Part shown: positions 30,902-60,321 of the stretch, piece by piece
Layout of the letters: each line of letters starts with the position of its first letter
Numbering within the stretch: position 1 is the first letter of the stretch
Assembly (NCBI GenBank): GCA_002269645.1
Contig: NIVC01000939.1
Span: 310,001-374,000 of the forward strand
Direction: 5' to 3'
Source: Macrostomum lignano
Lineage: Eukaryota
Length of the DNA stretch: 64,000 nucleotides
Notes under the pieces: model-generated
Database searches by the model: none
What the model saw: the letters and a program-made list of their open reading frames with translations, nothing else
What the model was told of the DNA's origin: nothing
Program-made: the position numbers and the translations under genes

Positions 30902-33739
30902 ATAGAAGTAGAAGTTAGGCCTAGAATAAAAATCTTTTTGAAATAATTAGCCATAGTCTAATTAACTATAGACAAGTAGTATGAAGACGCATACGTCTTT
31001 TTGCCACCAGTGAACGGGCATCTTTTTAGATGTGGGTCTTCATACTACTTGATAAACCTAGTTTTGTACCAATGAAAAAAACTTTGAGAAGCTCAAAAAA
31101 TATAAATGTAAATCTCTAGTCTCTACTTCTCCCATTTTATCTGTCTGTCTGTTTGTTCTATTTCTCTCATCTCTAATCTCTCCAGTCTCCCCTCTCTCGC
31201 TTCTCTCTTGCCTTGTCTTTAATCTCCTTTTTTCTCTTCTCCCTTTATTCCCTTTCATTTCCTTCCTTATCTGGCCCGCAGCCATGAGGTGGATTCTTCT
31301 ATAATAGGCCCTCGATCTAAAAAATTGTCTAAAGTCTCCAGAGCATAGCAGCTAGCAGGGTTATACCACCCCATTAAGCTGGTTGTTTCGGTGCAAGATC
31401 CTCTTAGCATCAGCTTAAGTGAAGTGCTTGGAAAGCCAGGCCAGTTTTGTGGGACATAATACTCGTACTCTCAATCAGATAAATGAGATAGTAAGTACAC
31501 TTAAGATACCCTAAGCCTCTTCTCCAATGGGGTTGCAAAGAAAGCTAAAAATTAAGTCATTCCAAAACACTGTACATAGCTGCTTCATAAGTCATATCAC
31601 CTTACCTTTTAGTCTAGGTAGATTGTACACGTAGTGACTTGGAGCTTGCCACCCGCCAAACTTTGTACTGGGCTTGCAATTCAAATGTTCAGTTAAAGAG
31701 CTAAATTTAATACGAAATTCTAATCACATGATGCCAATTTATCAATCTAATTTTCCTTGGTCTATGCGTGAAGCAAATGAAGCTCTATTACACGCCCTCC
31801 CAACCAAGCTGCCAAGCCCTCTCACATTGCCACAACCCCTTGGAAGCGACAGTGTGTACATTATATGTACGATTAATTCCTTCCTTTTCCTTTCCTTTCT
31901 AACCAGCTTAATTCAACCCAACACCAAAGCCATGCAAGCAATCGCATGTAAATGCAGATTATGCAAAGTGGTATGCAGCTTAATGTGATGAATTTCGATG
32001 CAAAAAGGCATTTTTACCTGAAAAGAACATCAAATGGTTATGAAACTCTAGAAATTTGTTAAATTAACTATATAGAACACTGTGCATTGGTTTCAGTGCA
32101 AAGTTCCTACAATTTCCCGGTTTATTAGATTTGGAAGTAGCAAAAGTGTCAAAAATCAAGTTTTCAGTTTTTTATTGATAATTTTTTACCCAATGAACTG
32201 AATCCCTAGAAATTGCACACAAATATGCCTCGTTTTATGGGAAATCAGCCATCACAAAAATAATGCCGTCCTATTGCGTTATTTTGCCTGATTTCAAGCT
32301 AAATATTAAAAAATCACTACTCTGATCAATTTCCAATCACTTTCAATACTTGAGCACTTGTTGCAGACACTCAAAAACTTGGTAAATTTTAGCCAAACAT
32401 TAGTACAACTCATTGCAGTATCCGCATTTGATCTATCATTCTTTTAAAAATTTAATCACCTATTTTTCTGGCACCCAATCAGCCAAAAATCACAAATTAT
32501 TGATTTCTGATCGATTTTTCAACTCAAAAAACAGCAAAATCAGATGGCGGCAATTCAAACCAATATAGTACAGCAACTATGCTATAGAAATTCAAAGTCG
32601 GATTATTTGCACCATGTTCTCAAAATTATAATGAGCAATAATACAAAACTCATGTGATTTTTTGAAAAATCGATTCTTGTTGATTTTCTTAGCACTGCAC
32701 AATCGTAGGAAAACAAAACTTTCGACACTTGTAGATTTTTGCATTGTGCATCTAAATGCACTGCTTTGAAGCCAAAACTCAAAAAGCTTCGTAGGAAAAA
32801 ATGGGGAAATAAAAAAGTAGGGTCATTTTTTACCCAAAAAACCCACTTAAACTGAATAAAGATGTTGAAATAAATTAAAGCGCCATATACCATTTTGTAG
32901 GAAATTTAGTTTTACAACTTTGATCCTGAGATATCAAAGCCGTATCTTGTAAGGTGTACCAGAATTTTGAAATCTCCCAGAAGCACTTTTGAAAAAATAA
33001 TCTTTCCACTTAATTTATGGCTTTGGAATAAAATCTCTGCACTTAAAAGTATATTTATTTGATAGATCTAAAAGTTTTCTATTAATCAACACCTCCTCAA
33101 CTCAATTGGTGCAGTGGTTGCTAAACAGAAGCATTTTTTAGAGAAAAAACATGAAATTTCAAAATGCATGGGAGTCTAACTTATTTACTCGTAAATACTT
33201 TCTAGCCCATGTCGGCCTTCGGCTGCCATGGGTAGAAATTATTCACTTGCCCTCAGCCCCTGGTGGGGCCTCGGGTTCTCTCGCTCTTGCCTAACGCCGC
33301 CTTTGGCAGCGCCTTTGGAGCCTTTGGCGGCGCTAGGCTTGGCTCGTTCACTGGTAGAACTAGCTAATGGCTATTCATTGCCAGCTATAAAGTCATGATA
33401 TCCCTCTAGTTGTGACCTTTTCTTCCCCTCTAATGCTAGGCTCTAACTCTAACCTTTTTCTTTTTAGCCCTTATTCTCTTCTATAAAGCCTCATCTTCTT
33501 TTCCCTTTAGTACCACCTTTCTTTCTAGTCCCACAAAGTCAACTCATTTATTAGGACATGCAAGAATATGGAATAGTAAATATGTTTTATCTATATTTGT
33601 AGTGCTGATAATACAACATACAAGGATTAGGGGATTTGTAAAAGCTCATAAAGGGGATTTGTAAAAGAACCTCGTAAAAGGGGATTAGGGAAAATAGGAT
33701 CATGCTGAAATTTTACTTTGGGCATTTAAAAAAGAAAAA

Positions 33740-35083
33740 ATGACCTTATTCAACATGGGTCATTTGATATTCACTGGTAACTTTGATAACATTCTTTGTT
33801 TGTTCAAGAATTAGTGCAAAAGCTGTCAGCTCAACATTTGTTTACTTCTTGATAAATAATTGAATATTCACTCCACTCTTGACAAGAAACTCATCCTGAG
33901 CTGTTAGATCAAATCAAAAGATTGGATAGATGGTTAGAAAGTCTTGTCTATTGAATGGAGGAGTTACACTGAATGGGTGAATGTCTTGAGCTACTGGATC
34001 AATTTCAACATAATCATTCGGATACATCACCTGATTTAACCTGACTTGAAGCTGGGTTATTTTTACTGAATTTGTTCCAGTCTTGTAAGATACATACTTG
34101 TGATCATTAACTATATATGATAGGTTGTTTACATCATATTTGAAGGCTACAAAGATTGCAAGTGGCATATTGGAGATGTTGGCTATGTTCCATGTATATG
34201 GGCTTCCTTGAATGAGTTGTGGCGGAACTGTTATCCTCTCTGGAAATGATACTGTAATGTCCTTGTTAAGTGATTCTAGAAAAGCTGTTTCAGCACTGGG
34301 TGACAAAGTAATAGCAGGGATCCAAATCTCAAAGCTATTAATAGTTAACTTAGCTTCCGTCCCGGCAGCTCCAAAGAAAATTTCAGCATCGTTAGTCTTT
34401 CTTGTCCATGTAAATTTGTATTTAATTCCTTTGCTAATCTTCTGCCAATCAAGGAGCCCAATGTGGGGTGTTAATGATAGTTTGATTGTTCTACCTCTGT
34501 TTGGAGCATTAGTGATATTATTGTAGTTTTCAAGCCTCCTAATGTATCCAGTATTTGAATCTTTCTTATTAAGTCTATCTTTCATAGCAATTGCTGCAGT
34601 TCTCATAGCTGCTTCATTTGCATCATTTGCTAGAGGTATGTCAGAAACAGTTCCAGTATCTCCAGTGTCCGGAATCCAACCATATGCTTCTCCAACTTCA
34701 TTCATTAACTTTTACTACATTACAGACTTTAAGATTGTGTCATACTCTCCAGGATCATTGTAGACTTTCTTTGTTCCTCCAATGTCAACTATGAGTTGGG
34801 AGAAAAGTCTCATAGGCCAATTATGTTCTAGGGTGATATTCGTATTCAAGTCGATATTATCTCATTGTGTTATCTTGTATTTTATAAAACCAAATGCCTC
34901 TGACATGAGAATGTATGACTCAGTTGAATTTACTTCACGAACTATTTGTCCTCCTGCAACATTGAGATTATTAGTGCTACCTGGTGTTGGAGAAAATTTG
35001 ATATAATCATCTTTCTTTTTGAAAAAGCTAAAATTTTTATCTTCATATACATGTAGGTTCAGAATATCCTTTTGATTTTCCAT
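33740..35083 (-). pseudogene. Polinton/Maverick (adintovirus-like) double jelly-roll major capsid protein, disrupted
   Basis: Three joinable frames: ...PGSTNNLNVAGGQI... / ITLEHNWPMRLFSQ...YGWIPDT...LQVRLNQVMYP...TIYPIF / FDLTAQDE...FALILE. Motif order resembles Polinton PY/hexon proteins (recognised from memory). Confidence 0.75.
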
Positions 35084-35103
35084 TTTTATACAAGAAATTT
35101 CAA

Positions 35104-35559
35104 CTAGGCTTTGTGAGGTCTAAGAATTATCCCATTACCCTGTTTCTCCTTTTTAACTTTAAAAGTCTTTAGCAGCCACTTGACTGCTTTGCTGGGTATG
35201 GTACTTGTTCGACTCTTAGCTGCATCAACTAATACTCCACTCCCTTGAGCATTTTTCAACTCTTCTAGTTTTTGCCATTCAATGCTTTCTATTGTCTTAT
35301 TATGCTTAGCATTGTTGGCTGTATTAACACATTTTGCAATCATTGTACCAACTCTGGAGGCTACTCCGATACCACCCAAAATTGCTGGTAGTAAGCCTAA
35401 TAGAGGAATTATTCCACCTTCATGTTCTTTCTGTTTCTCTTGCAATTCTTGAATCTTCTCTTTAGAAAGATACTGCTTTTGTTTATTTACAGTAACATAT
35501 CTTGGTTTCCCCTCTCAAACATTTTGATTGAGTCTGGCTTCAGTATTTTTCTCGCTCAT
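35104..35559 (-). pseudogene. Polinton PZ-like protein (GGxxP Gly/hydrophobic motif), one internal stop
   Basis: EHEGGIIPLLGLLPAILGGIG...IAKCV...KHN...LEELK...GNGIILRPHK, directly upstream of the capsid gene. Confidence 0.55.
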
Positions 35560-35689
35560 TTTGCTGATCAGAATTTCTTCAAACCATTGCCTTGCTGCTG
35601 TTCCTGTTCCTAGAACATGCTGTTCCTAGAGCCTTTTTAACAATATTTTGAATAGCCTTATTTGATTGAGAAGCTATCTGTTGCTCTTC

Positions 35690-35989
35690 TTCTATTCTTT
35701 TCTTTGCTTCCTTTTCTCAGCATTTCTTTTTAATATATTCCAGTTCCTCACCTGCTTTAGACATGTCACTATATGATTTCTTTGCATCAAATATGTTCTT
35801 TGCTGTGGTAGCTGTTTTACCTATTGCATCAGCTCCACTCACAATTTTACTTCGATGATTTGATAAAAAGTTTGTGACACCACTGATCATATCACCAATT
35901 CCTTCACCCTCTTTATCAGCTAGTAGCTGTGAATCTGACGTTTCAATCTGACCCTTTGCTCGTTAGCAGTTTGTTCGGTAAGTGCTCAT
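35690..35989 (-). pseudogene. Small Polinton-associated ORF (GEGIGD motif), one internal stop
   Basis: MSTYRTNC*RAKGQIETSD...GEGIGDMISGVTNFL lies between the integrase and the PZ-like gene. Confidence 0.35.
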
Positions 35990-36479
35990 TTTTAGTTGCA
36001 AAATTTGCTAGTACTCGTAGAAGCTGGGATTTGTAAAATGATCCAATAATTTCTTCTCCATTCTCATCCTCGATAATGTAGGTTATTGGATTTGAGTAAA
36101 CTATTTTCTTTATCCTAAACACTTCTGAAAATTTCCAATAACCTCTTTGACCCTTTTCAAAGTGCTCCTTGTATATATATATATATGAACTTTGTCACCT
36201 ACTTTGAAGTTTGGTTTCTCATTTGAATACTCGAAGGAATGCTTTGGTACTTGCTCAGGATGTTTAGATGCTTCTAAAGGAGTTATCAGAATCTCAGAAT
36301 GGATTGTGTTGTTGTATTTTTCAACAATAGCTGGCAATATGTGGAGCCATTTCTGGTTTCCTTGTAGATCAAATTCAAACCAGAGTTTATTTGTGAGAAT
36401 ACAATTGAACCTCTCAATCATTGCATTCTTAGACTTGCCATAAATTAAAAATATCTTGTTTATATATTTACCCTTTTCA
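35990..36479 (-). pseudogene. Polinton retroviral-like integrase, C-terminal half
   Basis: MIERFNCIL...WLHILPAIVEKYNNTIHS...FKVGDKV, then after a frameshift NPITYIIEDENGEEIIGSFY. Confidence 0.85.
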
Positions 36480-37474
36480 TCCTCTTTAATACTAAAGTTG
36501 GTGCGATGTTTGTTTGTCTGTATGTTGCAATTTTTCTCCTAGACTACTTGCAACTCAGCGTTGAAACTTATATGGGTAAACTGCAAATTTTCCGGGTTGG
36601 GTTTATAGCTATTTTAATCTTTCATTTTCACATTTTAAGATCCCTAAAAAAGCAGAAATAATATAACAATAGGGAATATGATACACCTTGCGCAACTCTT
36701 AGTGATTGCGCCACAACAGCTGGCCTATCTGTGTAGTGTATTCTTTTACCTGGTAGCTTAAGGGGTGTAACCGGGCCAGTTGGCATCAATTTTTAGTGAT
36801 TACGCCATAACTTTCTCCTATCTCTGCAGTGTATTTTCTCTCCAGTGGGTGGCGCTCGCGTTCTAAGTGGCTGCGTGTGTACAATCGGACCCTGGCTCAG
36901 TCGCGGACTGTATATACCTGGTACAATTGCGCAATGATATGGCTACTGATAAGTTTTCCTGTCTCTCAATGGGCAGCCCTGTGTATTTGTTGGACATTGA
37001 AATTCAATGCATCAATTTGCAAGCAGGCAGTGAACATACACTTGATACTTCAATGCTATAAATCAGACAGTTTCAAACGCTAACTGCTCTTCGAGTTCTA
37101 AACTTTAAGAGAAGAGACTTATACTGCTGAATAGATCTTGCAACACTGAGTTGGAAGATATAAATTGTTTGCTTTAAATAGAAAGACTAAAAGCACAGCA
37201 TCAAAAAAACTATTTCCAGACTTTTAGCTTTCTGCAAAGATTGTACTCATTTTGGGGTTCAATGGGCGTTCGACCGACCCCCCAACAGTTGGGGGTTCAA
37301 TTTCTAACTGCTACTGCGTATTGAAAAGGAGTCAGTCGCTGTGTACTGGAGGGTTGATTTAGATTGCGCAATATTTTTGTTAACTTTAACTGAGACTAAT
37401 ACTGACTGACTGAGAAATCGGTTGCGCAATCAATTGGTTCAATTTTTTATTTGAACACGCAGCTGTGTTTAGGT

Positions 37475-44685: not shown

Positions 44686-47600
44686 AGCATCATATAAAAA
44701 TCATAGATGTGTCATTTAAAAAATCATAGAAGCGTCATGTAAACAATCATAGAAGCATCATGTAAAAATCATAGAAGCGCCATGTAAAAATCATAGAAGC
44801 GTCATGTAAACAATCATAGAAGTGTCATTTAAAAAATCATAGAAGCGTCATGTAAACAATCATAGAAGCGTCATGTAAAAAATTGTAGAAGCATCATGTA
44901 AAAAATCATAGAAGTGTCATGTAAAAAATTGTAGAAGTGTCATTTAAAAATCATAGAAGCGCAATTTAAAAAATCATAGAAGCGTCATGTAAACAATCAT
45001 AAAAGCATCATGTAAAAAATTGTAGAAGCGTCATTTAAAAATCATAGAAGCGCAATTTAAAAAAATCATAGAAGCATCATGTAAACAATCATAGAAGCAT
45101 CATGTAAAAAATCATAGAAGCATCATGTAAACAATCATAGAAGCGTCATGTAAAAAATCATAGAAGCGTCATTTACACAATCATAGAAGCGTCATTTAAA
45201 CAATCATAGAAGCATCATGTAAAAAACCGTAGAAGCGTCATATAAAATCATAGATGCGTCATTTAAAAAATCATAGAAGTGTCATTTAAACAATCATAGA
45301 AGCGTCATTTACACAATCATAGAAGTGTCATTTAAACAATCATAGAAGTGTCATGTAAACAATCATAGAAGCGTCATGTAAACAGTCATAGAAGCGTCAT
45401 TTAAAAAATCATAGAAGTGTCATGTAAAAAATCATAGAAGCGTCATGTAAACAATCATAGAAGTGTCATGTAAAAAATTGTAGAAGCGTCATTTAAAAAT
45501 CATAGAAGCGCAATTTAAAAAATCATAGAAGCGTCATGTAAAAAACCATAGAAGCGTCATGTAAAAAATCAAAGAAGCGTCATGTAAAAATTGTAGAAGC
45601 GTCATATAAAAATCATAGAAACATCATTTAAAAAATCATAGAAGCATCATGTAAACAATCATAGAAGCATTATGTAAAAAATTGTAGAAGCGTCATTTAA
45701 AAATCATAGAAGCGCAATTTAAAAAATCATAAAAGCATCATGTAAACAATCATAGAAGCGTCATGTAAAAAATCATAGAAGCGTCATGTAAAAATTCATA
45801 GAAGCGTCATGTAAAAAATCATAGAAGCGTCATATAAAAAATCGTAAAAGTGTCAAAAAAACATAGAAACGTCATTTAAAAAATCATAGAAGCCTCATGT
45901 AAACAATCATAGAAGCATCATGTAAACAATCATAGAAGTGTCATGCAAAAAATCATAAAAGTGTCATATAAAATATCATAGAAGTGTCATTAAAAAATCA
46001 TAGAAGCGTCATGTAAACAATCATAGAAGCATCATGTAAAAATCTTAGAAGCGCCATGTAAAATCATAGAAGCGTCATGTAAACAATCATAGAAGTGTCA
46101 TTTAAAAAATCATAGAAGCGTCATATAAACAATCATAGAAGCGTCATGTAAAAAATTGTAGAAGTGTCATGTAAAAAATCAGAAAAGCGTCATGTAAACA
46201 ATTATAGAAGCGTCATTTACACAATCATAGAAGCGTCATTTAAACAATCATAGAAGCATCATGTAAAAAACTGTAGAAGCGTCATATAAAATCATAGATG
46301 CGTCATTTAAAAAATCATAGAAGCGTCATTTAAATAATCATAAAAGCGTCATGTAAACAATCATAGAAGCGTCATGTAAACAGTCATAGAAGCGTCATTT
46401 AAAAAATCATAGGAGTGTCATGTAAAAAATCATAGAAGCATCATGTAAACAATTATAGAAGCGTCATGTAAAAAATCATAGAAGTGTCATGTAAACAATC
46501 ATAGAAGCGTCATTTAAAAATCATAGAAGCGCAATTTAAAAATCATAGAAGCACAATTTAAAAAATCATAGAAGCGTCATGTAAAAAATCATAGAAGCGT
46601 CATGTAAAAAATCATAGAAGCGTCATGTAAAAAATTGTAGAAGCGTCATATAAAAATCATAGAAACGTCATTTAAAAAATCATAGAAGCGTCATTTAAAC
46701 AATCATAGAAGCGTCATGTAAACAATCATAGAAGCGTCATGTAAACAGTCATAGAAGTGTCATTTAAAAAATCATAGAAGTGTCATGTAAAAAATCATAG
46801 AAGCGTCATGTAAACAATCATAGAAGCGTCATGTAAAAAATCGTAGAAGCGTCATTTAAAAATCATAGAAGTGCAATTTAAAAAATCATAGAAGCGTCAT
46901 GTAAACAATCATAGAAGCGTCATGTAAAAAATCATAGAAGCGTCATGTAAAAAATCATAGAAGCGTCATGTAAAGAATCATAGAAGCATCATATAAAAAA
47001 TCATAGAAGCATCATGTAAACAATCATAGAAGCGTCATGTAAAAAACCGTAGAAGCGTCATATAAAATCATAGATGTGTCATTTAAAAAAATCATAGAAG
47101 CCTCATGTAAACAATCATAGAAGCGTCATGTAAACAATCATAGAAGTGTCATGCAAAAAATCATAAAAGCGTCATATAAAATATCATAAAAGTATCATGT
47201 AAACAATCATAGAAGCGTCATGTAAAAAATCATAGAAGTGTCATGTAAAAAATTGTAGAAGCGTCATTTAAAAATCATAGAAGCGCAGTTTAAAAATCAT
47301 AGAAGCGCAATTTAAAAAATCATAGAAGCGTCATGTAAAAAATCATAGAAGCGTCATGTAAAAAATCATAGAAGCGTCATGTAAAAAATTGTAGAAGCGT
47401 CATATAAAAATCATAGAAACGTCATTTAAAAAATCATAGAAGCGTCATGTAAACAATCATAGAAGTGTCATGTAAAAAATCGTAGAAGCGTCATTTTAAA
47501 ATCATAGAAGCGCAATTTAAAAAATCATAGAAGCGTCATGCAAAAAATCATAGAAGTGTCATGTAAACAATCATAGAAGCGTCATGTAAACAATCATAGA

Positions 47601-50600
47601 AGCGTCATGTAAAAAATTGTAGAAGCTTCATATAAAAATCATAGAAACGTCATTTAAAAAATCATAGAAGCATCATGTAAACAATCATAGAAGCGTCATG
47701 TAAAAAATTGTAGAAGTGTCATTTAAAAATCATAGAAGCACAATTTAAAAAATCATAGAAGCATCATGTAAACAATCATAGAAGCGTCATGTAAAAAACC
47801 GTAAAAGCGTCATATAAAATCATAGATGGTTCATTTAAAAAATCATAGAAGCGTCATTTAAACAATCATAGAAGCGTCATGTAAACAATCATAGAAGCGT
47901 CATGTAAACAGTCATAGAAGCGTCATTTAAAAAATCATAGAAGTGTCATGTAAAAAATCATAGAAGCGTCATGTAAACAATCATAGAAGTGTCATGTAAA
48001 AAATTGTAGAAGCGTCATTTAAAAATCATAGAAGCGCAATTTAAAAAATCATAGAAGCGTCATGTAAAAAACCATAGAAGCGTCATGTAAAAAATCAAAG
48101 AAGCGTCATGTAAAAATTGTAAAAGCGTCATATAAAAATCATAGAAACGTCATTTAAAAAATCATAGAAGCATCATGTAAACAATCATAGAAGCATCATG
48201 TAAAAAATTGTAGAAGCGTCATTTAAAAATCATAGAAGCGCAATTTAAAAAATCATAAAAGCATCATGTAAACAATCATAGAAGCGTCATGTAAAAAATC
48301 ATAGAAGCGTCATGTAAAAATTCATAGAAGCATCATGTAAAAAATCATAGAAGCGTCATATAAAAAATCGTAAAAGTGTCAAAAAAAACATAGAAACGTC
48401 ATTTAAAAAATCATAGAAGCCTCATGTAAACAATCATAGAAGCATCATGTAAACAATCATAGAAGTGTCATGCAAAAAATCATAAAAGTGTCATATAAAA
48501 TATCATAGAAGTGTCATTAAAAAATCATAGAAGCGTCATGTAAACAATCATAGAAGCATCATGTAAAAATCTTAGAAGCGCCATGTAAAATCATAGAAGC
48601 GTCATGTAAACAATCATAGAAGTGTCATTTAAAAAATCATAGAAGCGTCATATAAACAATCATAGAAGCGTCATGTAAAAAATTGTAGAAGCGTCATGTA
48701 AAAAATCAGAAAAGCGTCATGTAAACAATTATAGAAGCGTCATTTACACAATCATAGAAGCGTCATTTAAACAATCATAGAAGCATCATGTAAAAAACTG
48801 TAGAAGCGTCATATAAAATCATAGATGCGTCATTTAAAAAATCATAGAAGCGTCATTTAAATAATCATAGAAGCGTCATGTAAACAATCATAGAAGCGTC
48901 ATGTAAACAGTCATAGAAGCGTCATTTAAAAAATCATAGGAGTGTCATGTAAAAAATCATAGAAGCATCATGTAAACAATTATAGAAGCGTCATGTAAAA
49001 AATCATAGAAGTGTCATGTAAACAATCATAGAAGCGTCATTTAAAAATCATAGAAGCGCAATTTAAAAATCATAGAAGCGCAATTTAAAAAATCATAGAA
49101 GCGTCATGTAAAAAATCATAGAAGCGTCATGTAAAAAATCATAGAAGCGTCATGTAAAAAATTGTAGAAGCGTCATATAAAAATCATAGAAACGTCATTT
49201 AAAAAATCATAGAAGCGTCATTTAAACAATCATAGAAGCGTCATGTAAACAATCATAGAAGCGTCATGTAAACAGTCATAGAAGCGTCATTTAAAAAATC
49301 ATAGAAGTGTCATGTAAAAAATCATAGAAGCGTCATGTAAACAATCATAGAAGCGTCATGTAAAAAATCGTAGAAGCGTCATTTAAAAATTATAGAAGTG
49401 CAATTTAAAAAATCATAGAAGCGTCATGTAAACAATCATAGAAGCGTCATGTAAAAAATCATAGAAGCGTCATGTAAAAAATCATAGAAGCGTCATGTAA
49501 AGAATCATAGAAGCATCATATAAAAAATCATAGAAGCATCATGTAAACAATCATAGAAGCGTCATGTAAAAAACCGTAGAAGCGTCATATAAAATCATAG
49601 ATGTGTCATTTAAAAAATCATAGAAGCCTCATGTAAACAATCATAGAAGCGTCATGTAAACAATCATAGAAGTGTCATGCAAAAAATCATAAAAGCGTCA
49701 TATAAAATATCATAGAAGTGTCATGTAAACAATCATAGAAGCATCATGTAAACAATCATAGAAGCGTCATGTAAAAAATCATAGAAGTGTCATGTAAAAA
49801 ATTGTAGAAGCGTCATTTAAAAATCATAGAAGCGCAGTTTAAAAATCATAGAAGCGCAATTTAAAAAATCATAGAAGCGTCATGTAAAAAATCATAGAAG
49901 CGTCATGTAAAAAATCATAGAAGCGTCATGTAAAAAATTGTAGAAGCGTCATATAAAAATCATAGAAACGTCATTTAAAAAATCATAGAAGCGTCATGTA
50001 AACAATCATAGAAGTGTCATGTAAAAAATCGTAGAAGCGTCATTTTAAAATCATAGAAGCGCAATTTAAAAAATCATAGAAGCGTCATGCAAAAAATCAT
50101 AGAAGTGTCATGTAAACAATCATAGAAGCGTCATGTAAACAATCATAGAAGCGTCATGTAAAAAATTGTAGAAGCTTCATATAAAAATCATAGAAACGTC
50201 ATTTAAAAAATCATAGAAGCATCATGTAAACAATCATAGAAGCGTCATGTAAAAAATTGTAGAAGTGTCATTTAAAAATCATAGAAGCACAATTTAAAAA
50301 ATCATAGAAGCATCATGTAAACAATCATAGAAGCGTCATGTAAAAAACCGTAAAAGCGTCATATAAAATCATAGATGGTTCATTTAAAAAATCATAGAAG
50401 CGTCATTTAAACAATCATAGAAGCGTCATGTAAACAATCATAGAAGCGTCATGTAAACAGTCATAGAAGCGTCATTTAAAAAATCATAGAAGTGTCATGT
50501 AAAAAATCATAGAAGCGTCATGTAAACAATCATAGAAGCGTCATGTAAAAAATCATAGAAGCGTCATGTAAAAATTGTAGAAGCGTCATATAAAAATCAT

Positions 50601-53600
50601 AGAAACGTCATGTAAACAATCATAGAAGCATCATGTAAAAAATCGTAGAAGCGTCATTTAAAAATCATAGAAGCGCAATTTAAAAAATCATAGAAGCATC
50701 ATGTAAACAATCATAGAAGCGTCATGTAAAAAATCATAGAAGCGTCATGTAAAAAATCATACAAGCGTCATATAAAAAATCGTAAAAGCGTCATAAAAAT
50801 CTTAGAAATGTCATTTAAAAAATCATAGAAGCCTCATGTAAACAATCATAGAAGCATCATTTAAACAATCATAGAAGTGTCATGCAAAAAATCATAAAAG
50901 CCTCATATAAAATATCATAGAAGTGTCATGTAAACAATCATAGAAGCATCATGTAAACAATCATAGAAGCGTCATGTAAAAAATCATAGAAGCGTCATTT
51001 ACACAATCATAGAAGTGTCATTTAAACAGTCATAGAAGCATCATGTAAAAAACCGTAGAAGCGTCATATAAAATCATAGATGTGTCATTTATAAAATCAT
51101 AGAAGCGTCATTTAAACAATCATAGAAGCGTCATGTAAACAGTCATAGAAGCGTCATTTAAAAAATCATAGAAGCGTCATGTAAAAAATCATAGAAGCGT
51201 CATGTAAACAATCATAGAAGCGTCATGTAAAAAATCGTAGAAGCGTCATTTAAAAATCATAGAAGCGCAAGTTAAAAAATCATAGAAGCGTCATGTAAAA
51301 AATCATAGAAGCGTCATGTAAAAAATCATAGAAGCGTCATGTAAAAAATCATAGAAGCGTCATGTAAAAAATCATAGAAGCGTCATGTAAAAATTGTAGA
51401 AGCGTCATATAAAAATCATAGAAACGTCATTTAAAAAATCATAGAAGCGTCATTTAAACAATCATAGAAGCGTCATGTAAACAATCATAGAAGCGTCATG
51501 TAAACAGTCATAGAAGCAGCATTTAAAAAATCATAGAAGCGTCATGTAAAAAATCATAGAAGCGTCATGTAAACAATCATAGAAGTGTCATGTAAAAAAT
51601 CGTAGAAGCGTCATTTAAAAATCATAGAAGCGCAAGTTAAAAAATCATAGAAGCGTCATGTAAAAAAACATAGAAGCGTCATGTAAAAAATCATAGAAGC
51701 GTCATGTAAAAAATCATAGAAGCGTCATGTAAAAATTGTAGAAGCGTCATATAAAAATCATAGAAACGTCAATTAAAAAATCATAGAAGCGTCATGTAAA
51801 AAATTGTAGAAGTGTCATTTAAAAATCATAGAAGCACAATTTAAAAAATCATAGAAGCATCATGTAAACAATCATAGAAGCGTCATGTAAAAAACCGTAG
51901 AAGCGTCATATAAAATCATAGATGTGTCATTTAAAAAATCATAGAAGCATCATTTAAACAATCATAGAAGCGTCATGTAAACAATCATAGAAGCGTCATG
52001 TAAACAGTCATAGAAGCGTCATTTAAAAAGTCATAGAAGTGTCATGTAAAAAATCATAGAAGCGTCATGTAAACAATCATAGAAGCGTCATGTAAAAAAT
52101 CATAGAAGCGTCATGTAAAAATTGTAGAAGCGTCATATAAAAATCATAGAAACGTCATTTAAAAAATCATAGAAGCGTCATGTAAACAATCATAGAAGCA
52201 TCATGTAAAAAACCGTAGAAGCGTCATATAAAATCATAGATGTGTCATTTAAAAAATCATAGAAGCGTCATTTAAACAATCATAGAAGCGTCATGTAAAC
52301 AATCATAGAAGCGTCATGTAAACAGTCATAGAAGCGTCATTTAAAAAATCATAGAAGCGTCATGTAAAAAATCATAGAAGCGTCATGTAAACAATCATAG
52401 AAGCATCATGTAAAAAATCGTAGAAGCGTCATTTAAAAATCATAGAAGCGCAATTTAAAAAATCATAGAAGCGTCATGTAAAAAATCATAGAAGCGTCAT
52501 GTAAAAAATCATAGAAGCGTCATGTAAAAAATCATAGAAGCGTCATGTAAAAAATCATAGAAGCGTCATGTAAAAATTGTAGAAGTGTCATATAAAAACC
52601 ATAGAAACGTCATTTAAAAAATCATAGAAGCGTCATGTAAACAATCATAGAAGCATCATGTAAAAAATTGTAGAAGCATCATTTAAAAATCATAGAAGCG
52701 CAATTTAAAAAATCATAGAAGGATCATGTAAACAATCATAGAAGCGTCATGTAAAAAATCATAGAAGCGTCATGTAAAAAATCATAGAAGCGTCATATAA
52801 AAAATCGTAAAAGCGTCATAAAAATCATAGAAATGTCATTTAAAAAATCATAGAAGCCTCATGTAAACAATCATAGAAGCGTCATTTAAACAATCATAGA
52901 AGTGTCATGCAAAAAATCATAAAAGCGTCATATAAAATATCATAGAAGTGTCATGTAAACAATCATAGAAGCATCATGTAAACAATCATAGAAGCGTCAT
53001 GTAAAAAATCATAGAAGCGTCATTTACACAATCATAGAAGTGTCATTTAAACAATCATAGAAGCATCATGTAAAAAACCGTAGAAGCGTCATATTAAATC
53101 ATAGATGTGTCATTTAAAAAATCATAGAAGCGTCATGTAAAAAATCATACAAGCGTCATGTAAAAAATCATAGAAGCGTCATGTAAAAAATCATAGAAGC
53201 GTCATGTAAAAAATCATAGAAGCGTCATGTAAAAATTGTAGAAGCGTCATATAAAAATCATAGAAACATCATTTAAAAAATCATAGAAGTGTCATGTAAA
53301 CAATCATAGAAGCATCATGTAAAAAATCGTAGAAGCGTCATTTAAAAATCATAGAAGCGCAATTTAAAAAATCATAGAAGGATCATGTAAACAATCATAG
53401 AAGCGTCATGTAAAAAATCATAGAAGCGTCATGTAAAAAATCATAGAAGCGTCATATAAAAAATCGTAAAAGCGTCATAAAAATCATAGAAATGTCATTT
53501 AAAAAATCATAGAAGCCTCATGTAAACAATCATAGAAGCGTCATTTAAACAATCATAGAAGTGTCATGCAAAAAATCATAAAAGCGTCATATAAAATATC

Positions 53601-54800
53601 ATAGAAGTGTCATGTAAACAATCATAGAAGCATCATGTAAACAATCATAGAAGCGTCATGTAAAAAATCATAGAAGCGTCATTTACACAATCATAGAAGT
53701 GTCATTTAAACAATCATAGAAGCATCATGTAAAAAACCGTAGAAGCGTCATATTAAATCATAGATGTGTCATTTAAAAAATCATAGAAGCGTCATTTAAA
53801 CAATCATAGAAGCGTCATGTAAACAATCATAGAAGCGTCATGTAAACAGTCATAGAAGCGTCATTTAAAAAATCATAGAAGTGTCATGTAAAAAATCATA
53901 GAAGCGTCATGTAAACAATCATAGAAGCGTCATGTAAACAGTCATAGAAGCGTCATTTAAAAAATCATAGAAGTGTCATGTAAAAAATCATAGAAGCGTC
54001 ATGTAAACAATCATAGAAGCGTCATGTAAAAAATCGTAGAAGCGTCATTTAAAAATCATAGAAGCGCAATTTAAAAAATCATAGAAGCGTCATGTAAAAA
54101 ATCATAGAAGCTTCATGTAAAAAATCATAGAAGCGTCATGTAAAAATTGTAGAAGCGTCATATAAAAATCATAGAAACGTCATTTAAAAAATCATAGAAG
54201 CGTCATGTAAACAATCATAGAAGCATCATGTAAAAAATCGTAGAAGCGTCATTTAAAAATCATAGAAGCGCAATTTAAAAAATCATAGAAGCATCATGTA
54301 AACAATCATAGAAGCGTCATGTAAAAAATCATAGAAGCGTCATGTAAAAAATCATAGAAGCGTTATATAAAAAATCGTAAAAGCGTCATAAAAATCATAG
54401 AAATGTCATTTAAAAAATCATAGAAGCCTCTTGTAAACAATCATAGAAGCGTCATTTAAACAATCATAGAAGTGTCATGCAAAAAATCATAAAAGCGTCA
54501 TATAAAATATTATAGAAGTGTCATGTAAACAATCATAGAAGCATCATGTAAACAATCATAGAAGTGTCATGTAAAAAATCATAGAAGTGTCATGTAAAAA
54601 ATCATAGAAGCGTCATGTAAAAAATCAAAGAAGCGTCATGTAAACAATCATAGAAGCATCATGTAAACAATCATAGAAGCATCATATAAAAATCATAGAA
54701 GCGTCATGTAAAAAATCATAGAAGCGTCATGTAAAAATCATAGAAGTGTCAAGAAAAAATTATAGAAGCCTCATTTAAAAACTAATGAAAGTGTCATTTA
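44686..54800. repeat. ~23-bp satellite array (~10.1 kb) with higher-order repeats
   Basis: Unit CATAGAAGCGTCATGTAAA(A/C)AAT. A remnant lies at ~38520-38593 on the other side of the hAT. Confidence 0.97.
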
Positions 54801-55682
54801 AAAAATTAAGAAGCATCATGGTAGAATAAAAGAAGCTTCATGTCAGACATGAAGGGTATCATGTAAAAATTAAATGCAGCTATAATGCTGTGCTGGGGAA
54901 AAAAACTGAGACATAAAGGCTCTCAGAAAATAACAGATTATGGGGGGGGGTTTGAGATGTCAAAGCAAAAGTCAGAAGCTACTTCAAAGTTCATGTACTT
55001 TACTCAATTTTTTATTGCATTCTTTGTTGGCTTGCCACGGGGGGGGGGGCGCTGATAGAAGAAGAGTCATATAAAAAATAAAAGTAGCACTACATATACA
55101 TAAAAGAAAAGTCATGTCGAAGTTAAAAGATTCATTTGGGAATTGATACGATGTCAAAGCTTGGTGGAAATTGTTATAGTGCTGTGATTCTTAAAGAAGG
55201 AATCACTAAAATGTCAAGGCTTAGGGGAGAAGAATGGCTGAGATTTCAAGGCTTTAGGTTGGGTTAAAGTTAGGTTTAGGTCAGATGTGGGTTGAGGGTT
55301 ATATTTTATTGGGTTTCAATATTAACAGAATAACAGGGGATTTTTTAGATTTCAGTGTTTATGGGGGCCATCATTGACATGTTAAGGCTTATGGGAGGAA
55401 TAGCTGAGATGTCAAGGCTCACGGGGGTATAAATGAGATTTCAAGGCTAAAGTCAGAAGCTACATGTAGTTTATTGAAAACTTTTTATTACATTATTTGA
55501 TGCCTCCTCAGGGGAGGGATCGCTGATAAAAAAAGCATAATGTAAAAAATAAAAGAAGCTTCATATTGAACTTAAGAAATTCATTTGGGAATCCCTACGA
55601 TGTCGAGGCTTGTAGGGAATCGCTATAATGCTGTAGTAGTGCTATAATGACTCTTAGAGAGAATTACTGAAATTTCAATGCT

Positions 55683-55724
55683 TTAGGGTTAGGTTAGGGT
55701 TAGGGTAGGCTAGGGTAGGGTTAG
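55683..55724. repeat. Degenerate TTAGGG tract
   Basis: TTAGGGTTAGGTTAGGGTTAGGGTAGGCTAGGGTAGGGTTAG. Confidence 0.8.
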
Positions 55725-55930: not shown

Positions 55931-56490
55931 TCCTTCTTTCTAATGTTGTCTTTTGAAAACGAATATAGCTTGTACATATGCTGATTATAAAACTCCTTGC
56001 TTTCATCTACACAAAGTCTCTCTAATCGTCTTCCTGATTCCTTAAATACTTTTTGGAAAGCTTCTGCAACTTCTGCTCCTGTCTTTGTTTTCAAAGGAAC
56101 TGCCCAGGCGTAACATGTAAAACCACCTATGATAGTGAGAGCATATTTGTAACCTCTTTCAGGAGGAAGGATAATGATATCTGCATGCCAAATTGTGTCT
56201 TTTGCATAGTGAATCATTTTTCTAAACAGTCTTGGTTTTCGATATTCTTATGCAATTTCAAAGCATCTTCATAGCTTAGACCATTGCCATATATGGTTAG
56301 ACAGTCTACAATTGTTGGGGTGTGACGTGTGAGTATGAATGCCTAATCTAAATCGAACTTTTGCCTTTATGATCCATTTTACTAGATTTTGAATGAGTCT
56401 TTCTTTCACAGACAAGTCGCTGGTTGGAATAGCATCTAAATCAGTTATCATTTTTCATCAGCAATGTGCTTCTTTGCTAAGGCTTCCTCT
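55931..56490 (-). pseudogene. Polinton PLA2-like domain C-terminus and integrase N-terminal half
   Basis: EEALAKKHIADEK/MITDLDAIP...IIKAKVRFRLG, then IWHADII...GYKYALTII...YAWAVPLKTKTGAEVAEAF...VDESKEFYN. Confidence 0.85.
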
Positions 56491-57911
56491 GGGCCAAAAC
56501 ATATAATTATGGTTGTAACATGACAGACTATTTTTACTTATAAAATGAAATCTAATAATAGAATATACTAAACCAATATTTTGAATTAAAGATTATTTTG
56601 TCAAGAATATGTTTATAAAGTTTCATATAGATATCATCATTAGTATAGATGATATTAAACCTTGAATGGCACTTATGGTTGTAACAACAGGATTTTTGAC
56701 ATATAGAAACTAAAAGGTAAAAGTCGTGTAACATTTTTTCATTTTTGATATTTTGCAATATTTTTTTTTAAATTTGACTAAGAACATCTTTAGAAGTCAT
56801 ACTCTTTTATTAGAATATATAAACTCAAAAAGGCAACAAAGATACAAAAGAAAAGGCTGCCTTATGGTCGTAACTGTGACAGGTGTTATTCCTCTGTCTT
56901 TATGAACAATCCCACTGCTGACACTAGCTGTGATAGGCCTTCTGGCTCTGTCTTTCTAAATTTCTAACTATTGATGCTAGTGTTTATTAAATATCCTACA
57001 AGCTGCCACCAAGTTGTTACAGGTTTTCAATTTCCTCTGCTGATACTAAATTCTGCCTTTGGTATCTCTAACTATTTCTTAGAATTTCATTTAAATATAC
57101 TGGTAGCATCTTATGTATTAATCTGGTAGCGTTCTTAGTATATGGCCTGAGCGGTCTTACTGGTATATGTACTTTCTTTCTCCAGTCTGGGCGTTACCGA
57201 GATTAGAGGGTCACAGCGATCACTCTTAGTACTTTCTTTGCATGAATCCCTGATTCCCAACTCTCAATACCTCTTTAAAATAAGCAATGATCTGAGAATA
57301 AGTATTGAACAACGTTTTGAGCTTATAGCTATCGAATGAAAGTTAATTTTCCTACCTCCAACTTCGCTCCTATTTATACTATCTCAACTGCGTATATTTA
57401 TAACAAACGTAGAATATTAAGAATATTTTGCAAGTTAAAACAAAACATAGTTTTCGCGTGATTTTAGAAATAAGGTTTCCTAGAAAACAGTAACTGCTTC
57501 TACATAACATTATGGTTGTAACATTTTTTTTCTGTCAACTCAGTAACTTTAAAGTACTAATGTATTAAAAATATAATAGATTATATGGTTGCTAATGTTT
57601 TTATCTGATGATGCAAATACTATAATTTTATATATAGTTTGTTTTTAACCTTCTAAAGCTTTCTATTTGTTTTTAAAAGGTACATAAACTTAATGATATC
57701 TTTTGCTTAGAAAATGTCCAATTTTTTACAAAAATAACTTTTTGCCAATTGATAACATACTAATCCAACATTTTATCATTTATTTATTCTTAGATTGTAT
57801 ACATTACATACAAAAAAGATTTGCTAAAAAATGGCTGATAAGGCAATGACAAGCAAAAATATTGAATTTTTTCTATTTTCTAAATATGTCCATCTTATAT
57901 GGAATGGGCCC
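56491..57911. mobile_element. Non-autonomous PIF/Harbinger-like element, 1421 bp
   Basis: GGGCC termini with degenerate ~22-bp TIRs and 3-bp TSD TCT (56488-56490, 57912-57914). Excision restores TSST-PE-EALAKK. Confidence 0.75.
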
Positions 57912-58054
57912 TCTGGAGTTGAAGACGTCTTTTCAGCATCTCTATAGCTTTTGTCATGATAGTAAGCAGTCCAATCGATTGGGTTAATTGGTAGACTATC
58001 ATACCGAGGCCAGTCTATAATTGGATTGAGTCTTTTGTCTAAATTTGTACCAGG
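57912..58054 (-). pseudogene. Polinton parvovirus-type PLA2-like gene, exon 2
   Basis: PGTNLDKRL...PINPIDWTAYYHDKSY: Ca-binding loop and catalytic HD motif of parvoviral VP1u-type PLA2. Confidence 0.85.
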
Positions 58055-58931
58055 CAGTTGTTCCTCAATCTTTCGAAAGAGGCTGGACTTTATCTTAAGG
58101 CTTCATCAGGATTGACCAGATCCTTCAGCCCCACCCTCATTAAGTCTCTGAACCTTCTCCATATCCTTGTCAACTTCGTTCAGACTTAGGAGCTTGGCTG
58201 CGGATTTCCACAATGTCCTCAAGCTTGTTACCATCGAACCATAGGTTGGTGGACAAAGTTTGATTGGGAACAGGAATTACCTGTGTTCCTTCAGAAGATT
58301 TCTCAACTGAAGTGGTACTTGAGGCTATTGTTGACGTACTAGAATTGGGCGGATTTCCCGCAATTTGAAGGTGTCGCCAATAACTAAGCACTTGTTTAAT
58401 GTTGGTTATAATGTTTTTGTATTGATCACCATAAAGAAATTTCAATGCAAATTCTCCTGTTATAAGGGTGATTCCATTGTCTAGTAAAATATTCTTAGGT
58501 TCCTTTGTAGTTTTATTGATGCATATATAATATAACTGGTAGGTGGGATAAGAATTTTTATAGTCTAATAGTTTCTGATAATTCCTTTCACAACTTGATG
58601 AATTGTCCGTGTTATCAGAAGACTTAAGCTCTAATGCAATCTTTCACTCAACGTGAACCAGGTCAATCTTTTTTACCTTGAATCCAAAATAATTTTCTGC
58701 TAAAACTTCTTATAGTCTGCCTAGTCTCATCTGAATAACTTTAATCTTGTGTGAAATTATTAACTCTTCTTGGAAAAGATCATGAAGAATTTGATCATGC
58801 CCAACCTTATCGTCAATTGGTTTCAGAATAGTTTTTCGAATTGTTTGCTCCATTTTTACTTCAGAAAATTTAACAAGTGCTTATTCTATGACTAGCAAGG
58901 ACATTGACTTCCTCACTCAGGCCACTGAATA
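58055..58931 (-). ncRNA. Group I self-splicing intron (IC1-like), 877 nt
   Basis: P AAAUUGCGGGAAA (58354-58366), Q AAUCCGCAGCCAAG (58193-58206), R GUUCAGAGACUUA (58141-58153), S AAGAUAAAGUCC (58085-58096). P3, P4, P7 and P9.0 pair. The 5' exon ends in U paired with G in P1; the intron ends in G. Confidence 0.9.
58170..58853 (-). pseudogene. Intron-encoded PD-(D/E)XK restriction-endonuclease-like ORF (227 codons, two premature stops)
   Basis: One continuous frame from ATG 58853: IQMRLGRL*EVLAENY...KIDLVHVE*KIALELKSSDNTDNSSS...YYICIN...GEFALKFLYG. Stops at 58710-58712 and 58644-58646. The 3' end overlaps the ribozyme core. Confidence 0.65.
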
Positions 58932-59063
58932 ACCTGCAAAAGAATACCCTGGTATATGAAATTTGCCAGGATATTTTCCAGTGGAGAAGATGGGTGGTAG
59001 TTTTGTTATAGCTGACTGAATATCTAAAGCATTTCCTAGAAATAATGGTTTACTGAAGGCCAT
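58932..59063 (-). pseudogene. Polinton PLA2-like gene, exon 1 (44 codons)
   Basis: MAFSKPLFLGNALDIQSAITKLPPIFSTGKYPGKFHIPGYSFAG joins in frame to PGTNL after intron removal. Confidence 0.85.
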
Positions 59064-59458
59064 TTTATATTTAAAAATTTACTTTTGTTAAATTGGGTGA
59101 CACTTTCAAATTGTATATACCTGAAATTGCATTGAATTGACCTGTGAATCCAACTTTTCTCATGGTTTTAGAGCTGGAATTGTAAAAGTTGCACTTTTTC
59201 AAAATTTTAAAAAATCACAAAAATTGCTATTTTCAGACCATTTTCACCTGTTTTTAGTCATTTTTCACCTATTTTTAGTGATTTTCAAAATGAGTGAGGG
59301 CATGAAGGCAAGGGCACCCTCCTTTTTAAAAAGTATAAAAATTCTGAAAAATCTGTGTTCTGTGAAATATTCCACAGGCCAATGCCCCCACATGCCCTCA
59401 CCCTCAACACCCTTACCCACAGATATATATATCTCACCACTTAAATCCATGACCTGGT

Positions 59459-59557
59459 AGTAGTAGTGTTATATAAGGGGTTGAGTCATCCAGCGAGCTG
59501 GCGCGCAATGCGCCTGAGCAATAAGTGTGGCACAACCCCATATATAACACTACTACT
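59459..59557. repeat. 99-bp mini inverted-repeat element with AGTAGTAGT ends
   Basis: Perfect 17-bp inverted repeat AGTAGTAGTGTTATATA, extendable to 25 bp with one mismatch. Confidence 0.8.
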
Positions 59558-60321
59558 AGTATTATTGCAAGCAGTTTTATAACTATTTAATTATATGCTA
59601 GAAGTTTATTATATCCACCCTATATACACATTGTCTCAAACTGCTTATTATATTATAATAATTATTGTTAAACAGATGCTGGCACAGAGTCAGCAAAGTA
59701 CCCACTGGTGGAAAATAGCTGAGTTCAGTCAAACTGCTTATATTAATAGTAATACTCAATTTTTTACTTCTTAATTTTAAATAAACTCAACCTTTAATAG
59801 AAATATCCAATTTTTCAATAGGGTAATATTAAATAATATGTCCGTTTACCAAAATATCCAAAATAACAAAATAACTTATTCAATAATTTATTTATACTTT
59901 TCAAGTAGACTTAGTAGACACAGCATACAAATTGCAACTGCATACATGGACAAAATGTATTTAAAAATATACCAAAAGTTGGGAGTGTATAATGGAAATG
60001 GATATTATAAAGAGTGCTAGTTGTTTTGTAAAAATAAGAAGTTTTTCACAATGTTCAAGGAGAAAGATAGAATATGGTGTTCTAACAGTTCTAACTGTTC
60101 TAATAGTACTAACAATCAATCCCACCCGCAGTGATCACTCATAACCAGCAATGCGAGTGTGTGAGGCTTGTAGAAGCTTCAGTTCTAACTCTAACACAGA
60201 AGCACACTAACTCTTCTCTTCATTGCTGGACTTTGAAGTAAATATTTTAAAATGCAGCTATTTAACCTACTTGTAAAGTAAGTGCATCACGGGAATCAGT
60301 AAAAGCTGGTGCAAGATCCAA

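Follow-up and report, generated by a model that had tools for sequence, protein, structure and literature searches.

Homing endonucleases, among which I-Ssp6803I is intron-encoded, are thought to need long recognition sites. Short, related words are cut by a number of restriction enzymes: EcoO109I cuts RG^GNCCY and AvaII cuts G^GWCC, according to the accessible portion of one report (PMC7337904), and a homolog of Eco47II is predicted to cut G^GNCC in the available text of another (PMC10305163). Group I introns matching RF00028 have been described, in the part of the source available to us, in protein-coding genes of integrating Polinton-like viruses from Rhodomonas, Paulinella, and Desmodesmus (PMC12220804), and the pairing of a free-standing endonuclease with an adjacent ORF-less intron is described, again in an incomplete version of the source, as collaborative homing (PMC11296320). 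For animals, the accessible sections of a review (PMC10964413) list group I introns solely in a few sharks and in lineages outside the bilaterians. The locus analyzed here is best read as a mobile group I intron that carries a captured restriction enzyme, with avoidance of the recognition site taking the place of a long site or a methylase; this combination appears to be new and unusual, and cutting by the enzyme is predicted. Neither a restriction-type nuclease within a Polinton intron nor a group I intron within a Polinton of animals was described in the literature searched, which covered few subscription papers.

The window, as we call the whole stretch of 64,000 nucleotides that was analyzed, carries the intron within a PLA2-integrase gene, with the following features.

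58055..58931, minus strand: group I intron of 877 nt with its terminal G at 58055, placed by Rfam and intron-less alleles
58918..58936, minus strand: P1, formed by the exon end CAGGU and the guide GCCUG, in which a U-G wobble pair marks the 5′ splice site, read from the sequence
58385..58883, minus strand: long-range stem with arms at 58883-58865 and 58403-58385, the top inverted repeat in the window
58085..58148, minus strand: P7 guanosine-binding helix, 58148-58142 with 58090-58085, from comparison of 6 introns
58932..59063, minus strand: exon 1 of the PLA2-integrase gene, 44 codons, the last encoding Gly
57911..58054, minus strand: start of exon 2, first residue Pro, PLA2-like domain

The ends of the intron (58931-58055) were set by comparison with 22 intron-less alleles, and its removal restores the Gly-Pro frame seen in those alleles. 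It was recognized as group I by a covariance-model match to RF00028 at 58447-58064 (88 bits, E value of 9e-22, gathering score of 50), by the U-G wobble in P1, by P7, and by the terminal G. The P1 pairing is identical in L041, a contig from a sediment metagenome, and is altered on both sides (CGGGU/GCCCG) in six loci of a second Polinton family of the same genome (family 2; the window copy belongs to family 1). Across six introns, all 36 cells of P7 are paired (36 of 36); four of the six pairs are changed on both sides and the G-C binding pair is invariant, in a set that was picked by hand and in which relatedness can itself beat shuffled sequences. The minimum-free-energy fold of the core was uninformative (z of −1.7). 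In the window, L023, and L041, the long-range stem encloses the nuclease coding region in one loop before P3, and it is the top inverted repeat in L023 and L041 as well, with a different arm sequence in L041; from an ORF-less sister intron, we infer that it corresponds to P2.1. None of the records with a matching sequence was registered as RNA. Exon joints in contigs of eight presumed-RNA runs were considered as evidence of splicing and rejected, because their letters match genomic intron-less alleles. The joints carry letters of the L121 type or of the L125/L131 type, and none of those listed from the eight runs has the exon end of an intron-bearing copy, which says nothing on splicing either way.

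The intron contains a reading frame whose parts are as follows.

58170..58853, minus strand: Eco47II-like PD-(D/E)XK nuclease frame, 227 codons plus stop, read from 58853 to 58170
58710..58712, minus strand: premature stop at codon 48 (TAA)
58644..58646, minus strand: second premature stop, TGA (codon 70), located after the catalytic Asp and before E-x-K
58623..58664, minus strand: catalytic motif D64-x10-E75-x-K77 in the numbering of the window copy, kept in relatives

The original prediction described a frame of 227 codons that starts 78 nt inside the intron, and the ends fixed from the intron-less alleles bear this out. Its further statement that the frame starts ahead of the ribozyme core and runs through it agrees with the Rfam RF00028 alignment, in which the frame extends over the core elements P, P5, and Q; the folded domain occupies approximately codons 1 to 165, and the remainder is read-through across the ribozyme core. 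The program-made ORF track had been said to catch only the 3′ part of the frame because of two stops, which is correct: with stops at codons 48 and 70, the stop-free piece is 58643-58173, and this explains the partial track. The plus strand over the frame is closed, with no open frame. The QMRLG, ELK, and NTDNSSS motifs that had been pointed out are all found in the frame, but the proposed spacing D-x(6-8)-ELK was wrong and should read D-x10-E-x-K (D64, E75, K77). With its stops read as X, the window copy scores 24.4 bits against PF09553 (RE_Eco47II), below the cut-off of 25.9; it diverges from its siblings by approximately 4 to 6% in the nuclease and by 1 to 8% elsewhere.

Intact relatives of this frame are present in the same genome. 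A search returned at least 41 matches (40 of 227 candidates were scored), of which 28 are near full length; the frame is open in 15 of these 28, and the catalytic residues are kept in all 15. Across 17 sequences the catalytic E and K are invariant and the D is nearly so. Over codons 1 to 136, dN/dS was 0.12 to 0.21 in four diverged within-genome pairs and 0.78 in one nearly identical pair with 4 differences. As far as these sequences indicate, the nuclease family is under purifying selection and is not decaying. The original prediction of a decaying nuclease next to an intact ribozyme fails for the family, in view of its open copies; the window copy is broken, as is the rest of its provirus.

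Two open copies exceed the PF09553 cut-off of 25.9 bits (at 30.1 and 27.3 bits), in agreement with the resemblance to Eco47II-like enzymes that the original prediction had pointed to. A structural model of an open sibling has a pLDDT mostly above 90 up to residue 160 and below 50 for residues 166 to 224. The fold check that had been proposed gave EcoO109I (E value of 3.8e-5) and AvaII as the top Foldseek matches of the open-copy model; in VIA, EcoO109I had a Z score of 9.5 (rmsd of 3.8 over 164 aligned residues), with the next row at 6.5. Identity to EcoO109I is 13%, and the predicted model and alignment together contain the restriction core fold with D and E-x-K in place. The I-Ssp6803I structure (2ost) is not among the fold matches listed for the model. 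In the Atlas, Eco47II and EcoO109I clusters lie at 0.91 among unnamed viral clusters, which is a lead only. Searches of PHROGs, NCBIfam, and PDB sequences gave nothing useful, and the viral fold library gave no match at an E value of ≤0.001. The C-terminal tail was considered as a protein domain and rejected: its pLDDT is low, it is read in two frames among homologs, and it is missing in the free-standing form of the enzyme described below. The arrangement has the layout of a homing endonuclease gene, in that it lies in a peripheral loop of the intron, its predicted target is disrupted by that intron, and empty alleles exist.

The intron-bearing Polinton resides in an animal genome: contigs C67 and C952 each carry Wnt and the intron-bearing element together, and the genome has 86 Wnt matches. 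A full-length sibling measures 17.8 kb (17,815 nt) between terminal repeats of approximately 580 bp and encodes a PLA2-rve integrase fusion, a double jelly-roll capsid, an A32 ATPase, and a D5 primase-helicase. Its PolB-like gene has no direct Pfam match and is 30 to 37% identical to loci matching PF03175. The repeats, rve domain, capsid, packaging ATPase, and PolB (the last by homology) identify the element as a Polinton/Maverick of the adintovirus-like kind. PF08398 was matched in an intron-less sibling of the PLA2 gene (E value of 1.3e-8). The host gene of the intron, at L166:1884-3239, encodes 452 aa in which PLA2 and the rve integrase are fused, so both domains would need splicing if translation does not begin at a downstream start. 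In the window, the remainder of the element is dispersed as follows.

59007..59558, minus strand: left terminal inverted repeat of the Polinton, matching both ends of the full-length copy
56493..57910, no strand: 1.4-kb insertion breaking exon 2, with an apparent 5-bp duplication
55931..56492, minus strand: remaining exon 2, rve integrase part, with stops inside
33675..36487, minus strand: the same Polinton continued, from the integrase end to the capsid region, 91% identical to L159:3633-6463, with a capsid-family match

The window provirus copy is dead throughout and is a relic. An explanation by post-homing decay of the nuclease alone was rejected, as exon 2 and the integrase part are broken too; decay is therefore not special to the nuclease, as had been supposed, but extends to the whole provirus copy. 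The piece at 33675..36487 has been displaced by approximately 20 kb by a satellite array and other inserts. A 23-nt satellite fills approximately 10 kb at positions 44600-54800, telomere-like repeats come after it near 55680-55720, and a 650-codon open frame at 39851-41803, which we take to be hAT-type transposase-like, sits inside the split Polinton. The insertion at 56493-57910 is AT-rich, has GGCC ends, and is the source of the remnant's only three GGNCC words. At the element's left end, 59458-59558 contains a 31-nt inverted repeat with 39 nt between its arms.

The position of the intron coincides with a word that the element otherwise avoids. Codons for Gly-Pro always read GGN-CCN, so a Gly^Pro junction split by the intron is a split GGNCC; the intron divides GGT^CCN in 25 of 25 parsed family-1 copies and likewise in L041. 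GGNCC is absent, in all four variants, from the 17,815-nt element, where 12.9 (Markov) or 21.1 (dinucleotide) occurrences are expected, and no other word in the set of 256 is more strongly depleted; CCNGG is present 20 times. The 15 ORFs of the element (4,599 aa) contain no Gly-Pro dipeptide against a shuffled mean of 7.0 (P = 0.0015) and 8 Pro-Gly dipeptides; synonymous shuffling predicts 7.2 GGNCC in them, and there are none. In each of two intron-less elements a single internal GGNCC is present, the empty intron site; that empty alleles all have GGNCC follows from the search pattern and is not evidence. Family 2 also lacks the word (0 in 15.9 kb versus 17.9 expected). Copies within one family are 93 to 99% alike, so that the avoidance is seen in only two semi-independent families. 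All seven stretches of other Polinton families without a nuclease match have observed-to-expected ratios of 0.67 to 1.13, with boundaries that were set by eye and take in some host DNA. The host flanks (24 kb) have 36 GGNCC against 40.6 expected, and L041 is too short for a count (0 versus 0.6 expected). From the family, the fold, and the avoided word together, we predict with considerable confidence that the nuclease is specific for GGNCC. The target is probably this 5-bp word and not a long site of the I-Ssp6803I type, in which case a restriction enzyme would have been captured, one that may double as a weapon.

Relatives outside the genome suggest where such an enzyme may have come from. 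The 15 close homologs are 46 to 61% identical; 10 end in a translated group I core, in two different frames, and the other 5 have no intron-core tail, two of them apparently cut short. L041 reproduces the entire arrangement, with the same site in a PLA2 gene, an Rfam match of 80.6 bits, and an integrase downstream. Intact intron-associated homologs, for which the original prediction had proposed a search, are present both in the same genome and in metagenomes. The other 89 loci fetched are 27 to 39% identical. Both computable points on which that prediction could have failed, the fold and the intact homologs, came out in its favor, and on the whole it is supported. Neighbors were scanned for 16 of the 89 loci, and in all 16 of these giant-virus or metagenomic relatives a C5 methylase adjoins the nuclease. 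No methylase, and hence no cognate methyltransferase, was found among the 14 family-1 ORFs scanned; genome wide, PF00145 had 12 matches, all on contigs other than the Polinton contigs examined. A tree places 12 tail-bearing and 14 methylase-paired proteins on opposite sides of a supported branch. The methylase-paired relatives show a partial and uneven loss of GGNCC (384 versus 598 expected, pooled), which is no independent confirmation of the site. For the nuclease, the PLA2-integrase, and the capsid alike, IMG/VR yielded nothing closely related. A scan for the P1 pattern gave 61 viral loci, and the intron core was matched only in L178/L186. Judging by its motifs, L178:9990-10330 is probably a giant-virus RNA polymerase gene with several group I introns. 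One intron of L178 is alike in its P1 pairing and similar in its core, and it is possible that an intron of this type was the source of the Polinton intron.

The animal genome holds several states of the site side by side. At least 22 empty alleles are present in the assembly, with a nuclease within 1.5 kb in none of the 22, and the ORF-less sister intron has 56 pattern matches. Family 2 is approximately 66% identical to family 1 in the integrase region and includes a free-standing nuclease of 167 aa (approximately 65% identical, without the tail) that ends 109 nt upstream of the sister intron. Among 15 family-2 loci, the slot beside the intron is filled by the free-standing nuclease in 2 and by an HNH-like gene in 13. 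The latter, at L172:1306-1872 and in 12 other family-2 loci, is presumably HNH-like by its motif; it had no Pfam or NCBIfam match. Another nuclease could accordingly drive homing at these loci. In 24 of the 34 best matches to the free-standing form that were examined, 17 precede the sister intron, 6 precede a different insert at the same site, and 1 is truncated; none of the 24 stands beside an empty site.

The inserts at this site are themselves diverse. The family-2 loci L143-L157 have ORF-less sister introns of 302 to 333 nt at the same Gly^Pro site, and 10 of 14 parsed end in A instead of the usual G, with the G-binding pair kept. A different intron-like insert of approximately 295 nt occupies the same site in L245-L249 and L260; its P1 is changed on both sides, its peripheral sequence is shared but its core is different, and its 3′ junction is no longer Gly-Pro. 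Its core is presumably of subgroup IE. Rfam at an E value of 0.001 missed the introns in L245, L249, L251, L253, L256, and L260, whose assignment rests on BLAST and P1; L251, L253, and L256 are 83 to 86% identical to L143. On a tree of the backbone (1.2 kb downstream; 42 of 45 rows, with L125, L131, and L140 dropped because they leave the element), the intron state needs five changes, at least three of them forced, and L003 and L023 are 93.8% alike in the intron and 99.0% in the backbone. This scattered distribution hints at homing, and ordinary recombination or intron loss would fit it too.

We consider it probable that a methylase-free GGNCC cutter serves both homing and competition, with the intron as its shield; cleavage, splicing, and homing are steps that we infer from sequence. 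The enzyme of a giant-virus-type restriction-modification pair would have been captured and its methylase lost. The element would then have purged GGNCC, including Gly-Pro dipeptides, save in the PLA2 loop, where Gly-Pro is needed, and the intron would take this last GGNCC out of the DNA, with splicing restoring the gene. The nuclease may first have been a neighbor of the intron, the state seen in family 2, before it came to lie within it, the state of family 1. Cutting at G^GNCC would produce a 3-nt overhang across the point of insertion; an intron-less sibling would be cut once, at the intron site, and repair from an intron-bearing copy would insert the intron. The carrier would be immune because all of its sites are purged and the last one is split by the intron, so that specificity would reside in site avoidance across the element's genome and not in the length of the recognition sequence. 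In unrelated DNA the enzyme would find many sites to cut, and it thus probably acts as a weapon as well while the virus replicates. Dozens of open nuclease genes coexist in the assembly with at least 22 empty alleles, which suggests that chromosomal copies are not converted efficiently. A five-base cutter would also damage host DNA (36 sites in the 24 kb of flanks) and would require tight control; this toxicity and the surviving empty alleles would imply expression only during virus replication. A real role of the nuclease in homing nevertheless seems likely to us. We also lean toward viewing the system as restriction without modification, in which a giant-virus enzyme was captured, GGNCC was recoded out, and the intron replaces the methylase as the mark of self.

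There is some chance, though a rather small one, that homing plays little part and that the enzyme chiefly degrades the DNA of rival viruses or of the host, with the intron hiding the last site in place of a methylase and intron-less alleles coming and going through recombination and loss. GGNCC is fully purged in both families, the free-standing form always adjoins a split site, and two intron types occupy the same site in family 2, all of which such a weapon would explain; interference by a phage intron endonuclease is also known, as far as the available part of the source goes (PMC11620839). However, the intron-less siblings would be cuttable exactly once, at the intron site, which makes them a homing substrate, and the gene has moved into the intron, in two reading-frame registers among the homologs. 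The two accounts are compatible and do not exclude each other.

It is quite improbable that the enzyme is a conventional long-site homing endonuclease centered on GGNCC, with the avoidance due to another enzyme such as the restriction system of a helper giant virus. The host genome would be spared by such an enzyme, and most characterized homing endonucleases have sites of >14 bp (17 bp for I-Ssp6803I), according to the accessible parts of two sources (PMC3984707, PMC3424549). The folded part of the model is predicted to be only approximately 165 residues with no added domain, however, all four GGNCC variants are gone, and the avoidance tracks the two nuclease-bearing families and is absent from other Polintons of the same host. 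That the protein is an inert passenger or a splicing helper that cuts no DNA can hardly be believed, for although the window copy has two stops and ORF-less sister introns are common (56 pattern matches), all 15 open copies retain the catalytic residues, dN/dS is approximately 0.2, and the GGNCC purge would go unexplained.

If the preferred reading of a captured GGNCC cutter protected by site avoidance is true, there would be a second route to homing, in which a short site is made unique by purging the genome around it. The locus would provide a snapshot of a restriction enzyme becoming an intron-borne homing enzyme with a proposed intermediate in the same genome, since the empty site, ORF-less introns, and the enzyme both free-standing next to an intron and within one are all present in a single genome. 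The purge would further imply viral replication and competition of these Polintons in the presence of a nuclease that would be dangerous in the host nucleus. The locus also places a group I intron in a protein-coding gene within animal chromosomes, beyond the lineages listed in the accessible sections of the review (PMC10964413).

Among described systems, the Type IIP Eco47II family (PF09553), with EcoO109I and AvaII, is alike in Pfam match, fold, D...E-x-K motif, and a GGNCC-type site that is the word avoided here; the present enzyme differs in having no adjacent methylase and in that its gene lies within a group I intron carried by an integrating virus of eukaryotes, with protection apparently coming from site loss and the intron. 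The giant-virus restriction-modification pairs (IMG/VR GVMAG and metagenome loci L031-L120) have a similar nuclease, 28 to 39% identical, but a C5 methylase adjoins it in all 16 loci tested. The introns of protist Polinton-like viruses measure 309 to 376 bp in Rhodomonas and have no endonuclease annotated in the portion of the source available (PMC12220804), whereas the intron described here is in an animal genome and bears a nuclease. I-Ssp6803I is likewise described, in what is accessible of its report, as a restriction fold used as a homing endonuclease, but it is bacterial and has a 17-bp site (PMC3424549), whereas the present enzyme belongs to a different Pfam family and likely recognizes 5 bp. 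Family 2 resembles collaborative homing in that the same nuclease stands upstream of an ORF-less intron at the same site; here, by contrast, the proposed precursor and the intron-embedded state occur in one genome, and the enzyme is of the restriction type.
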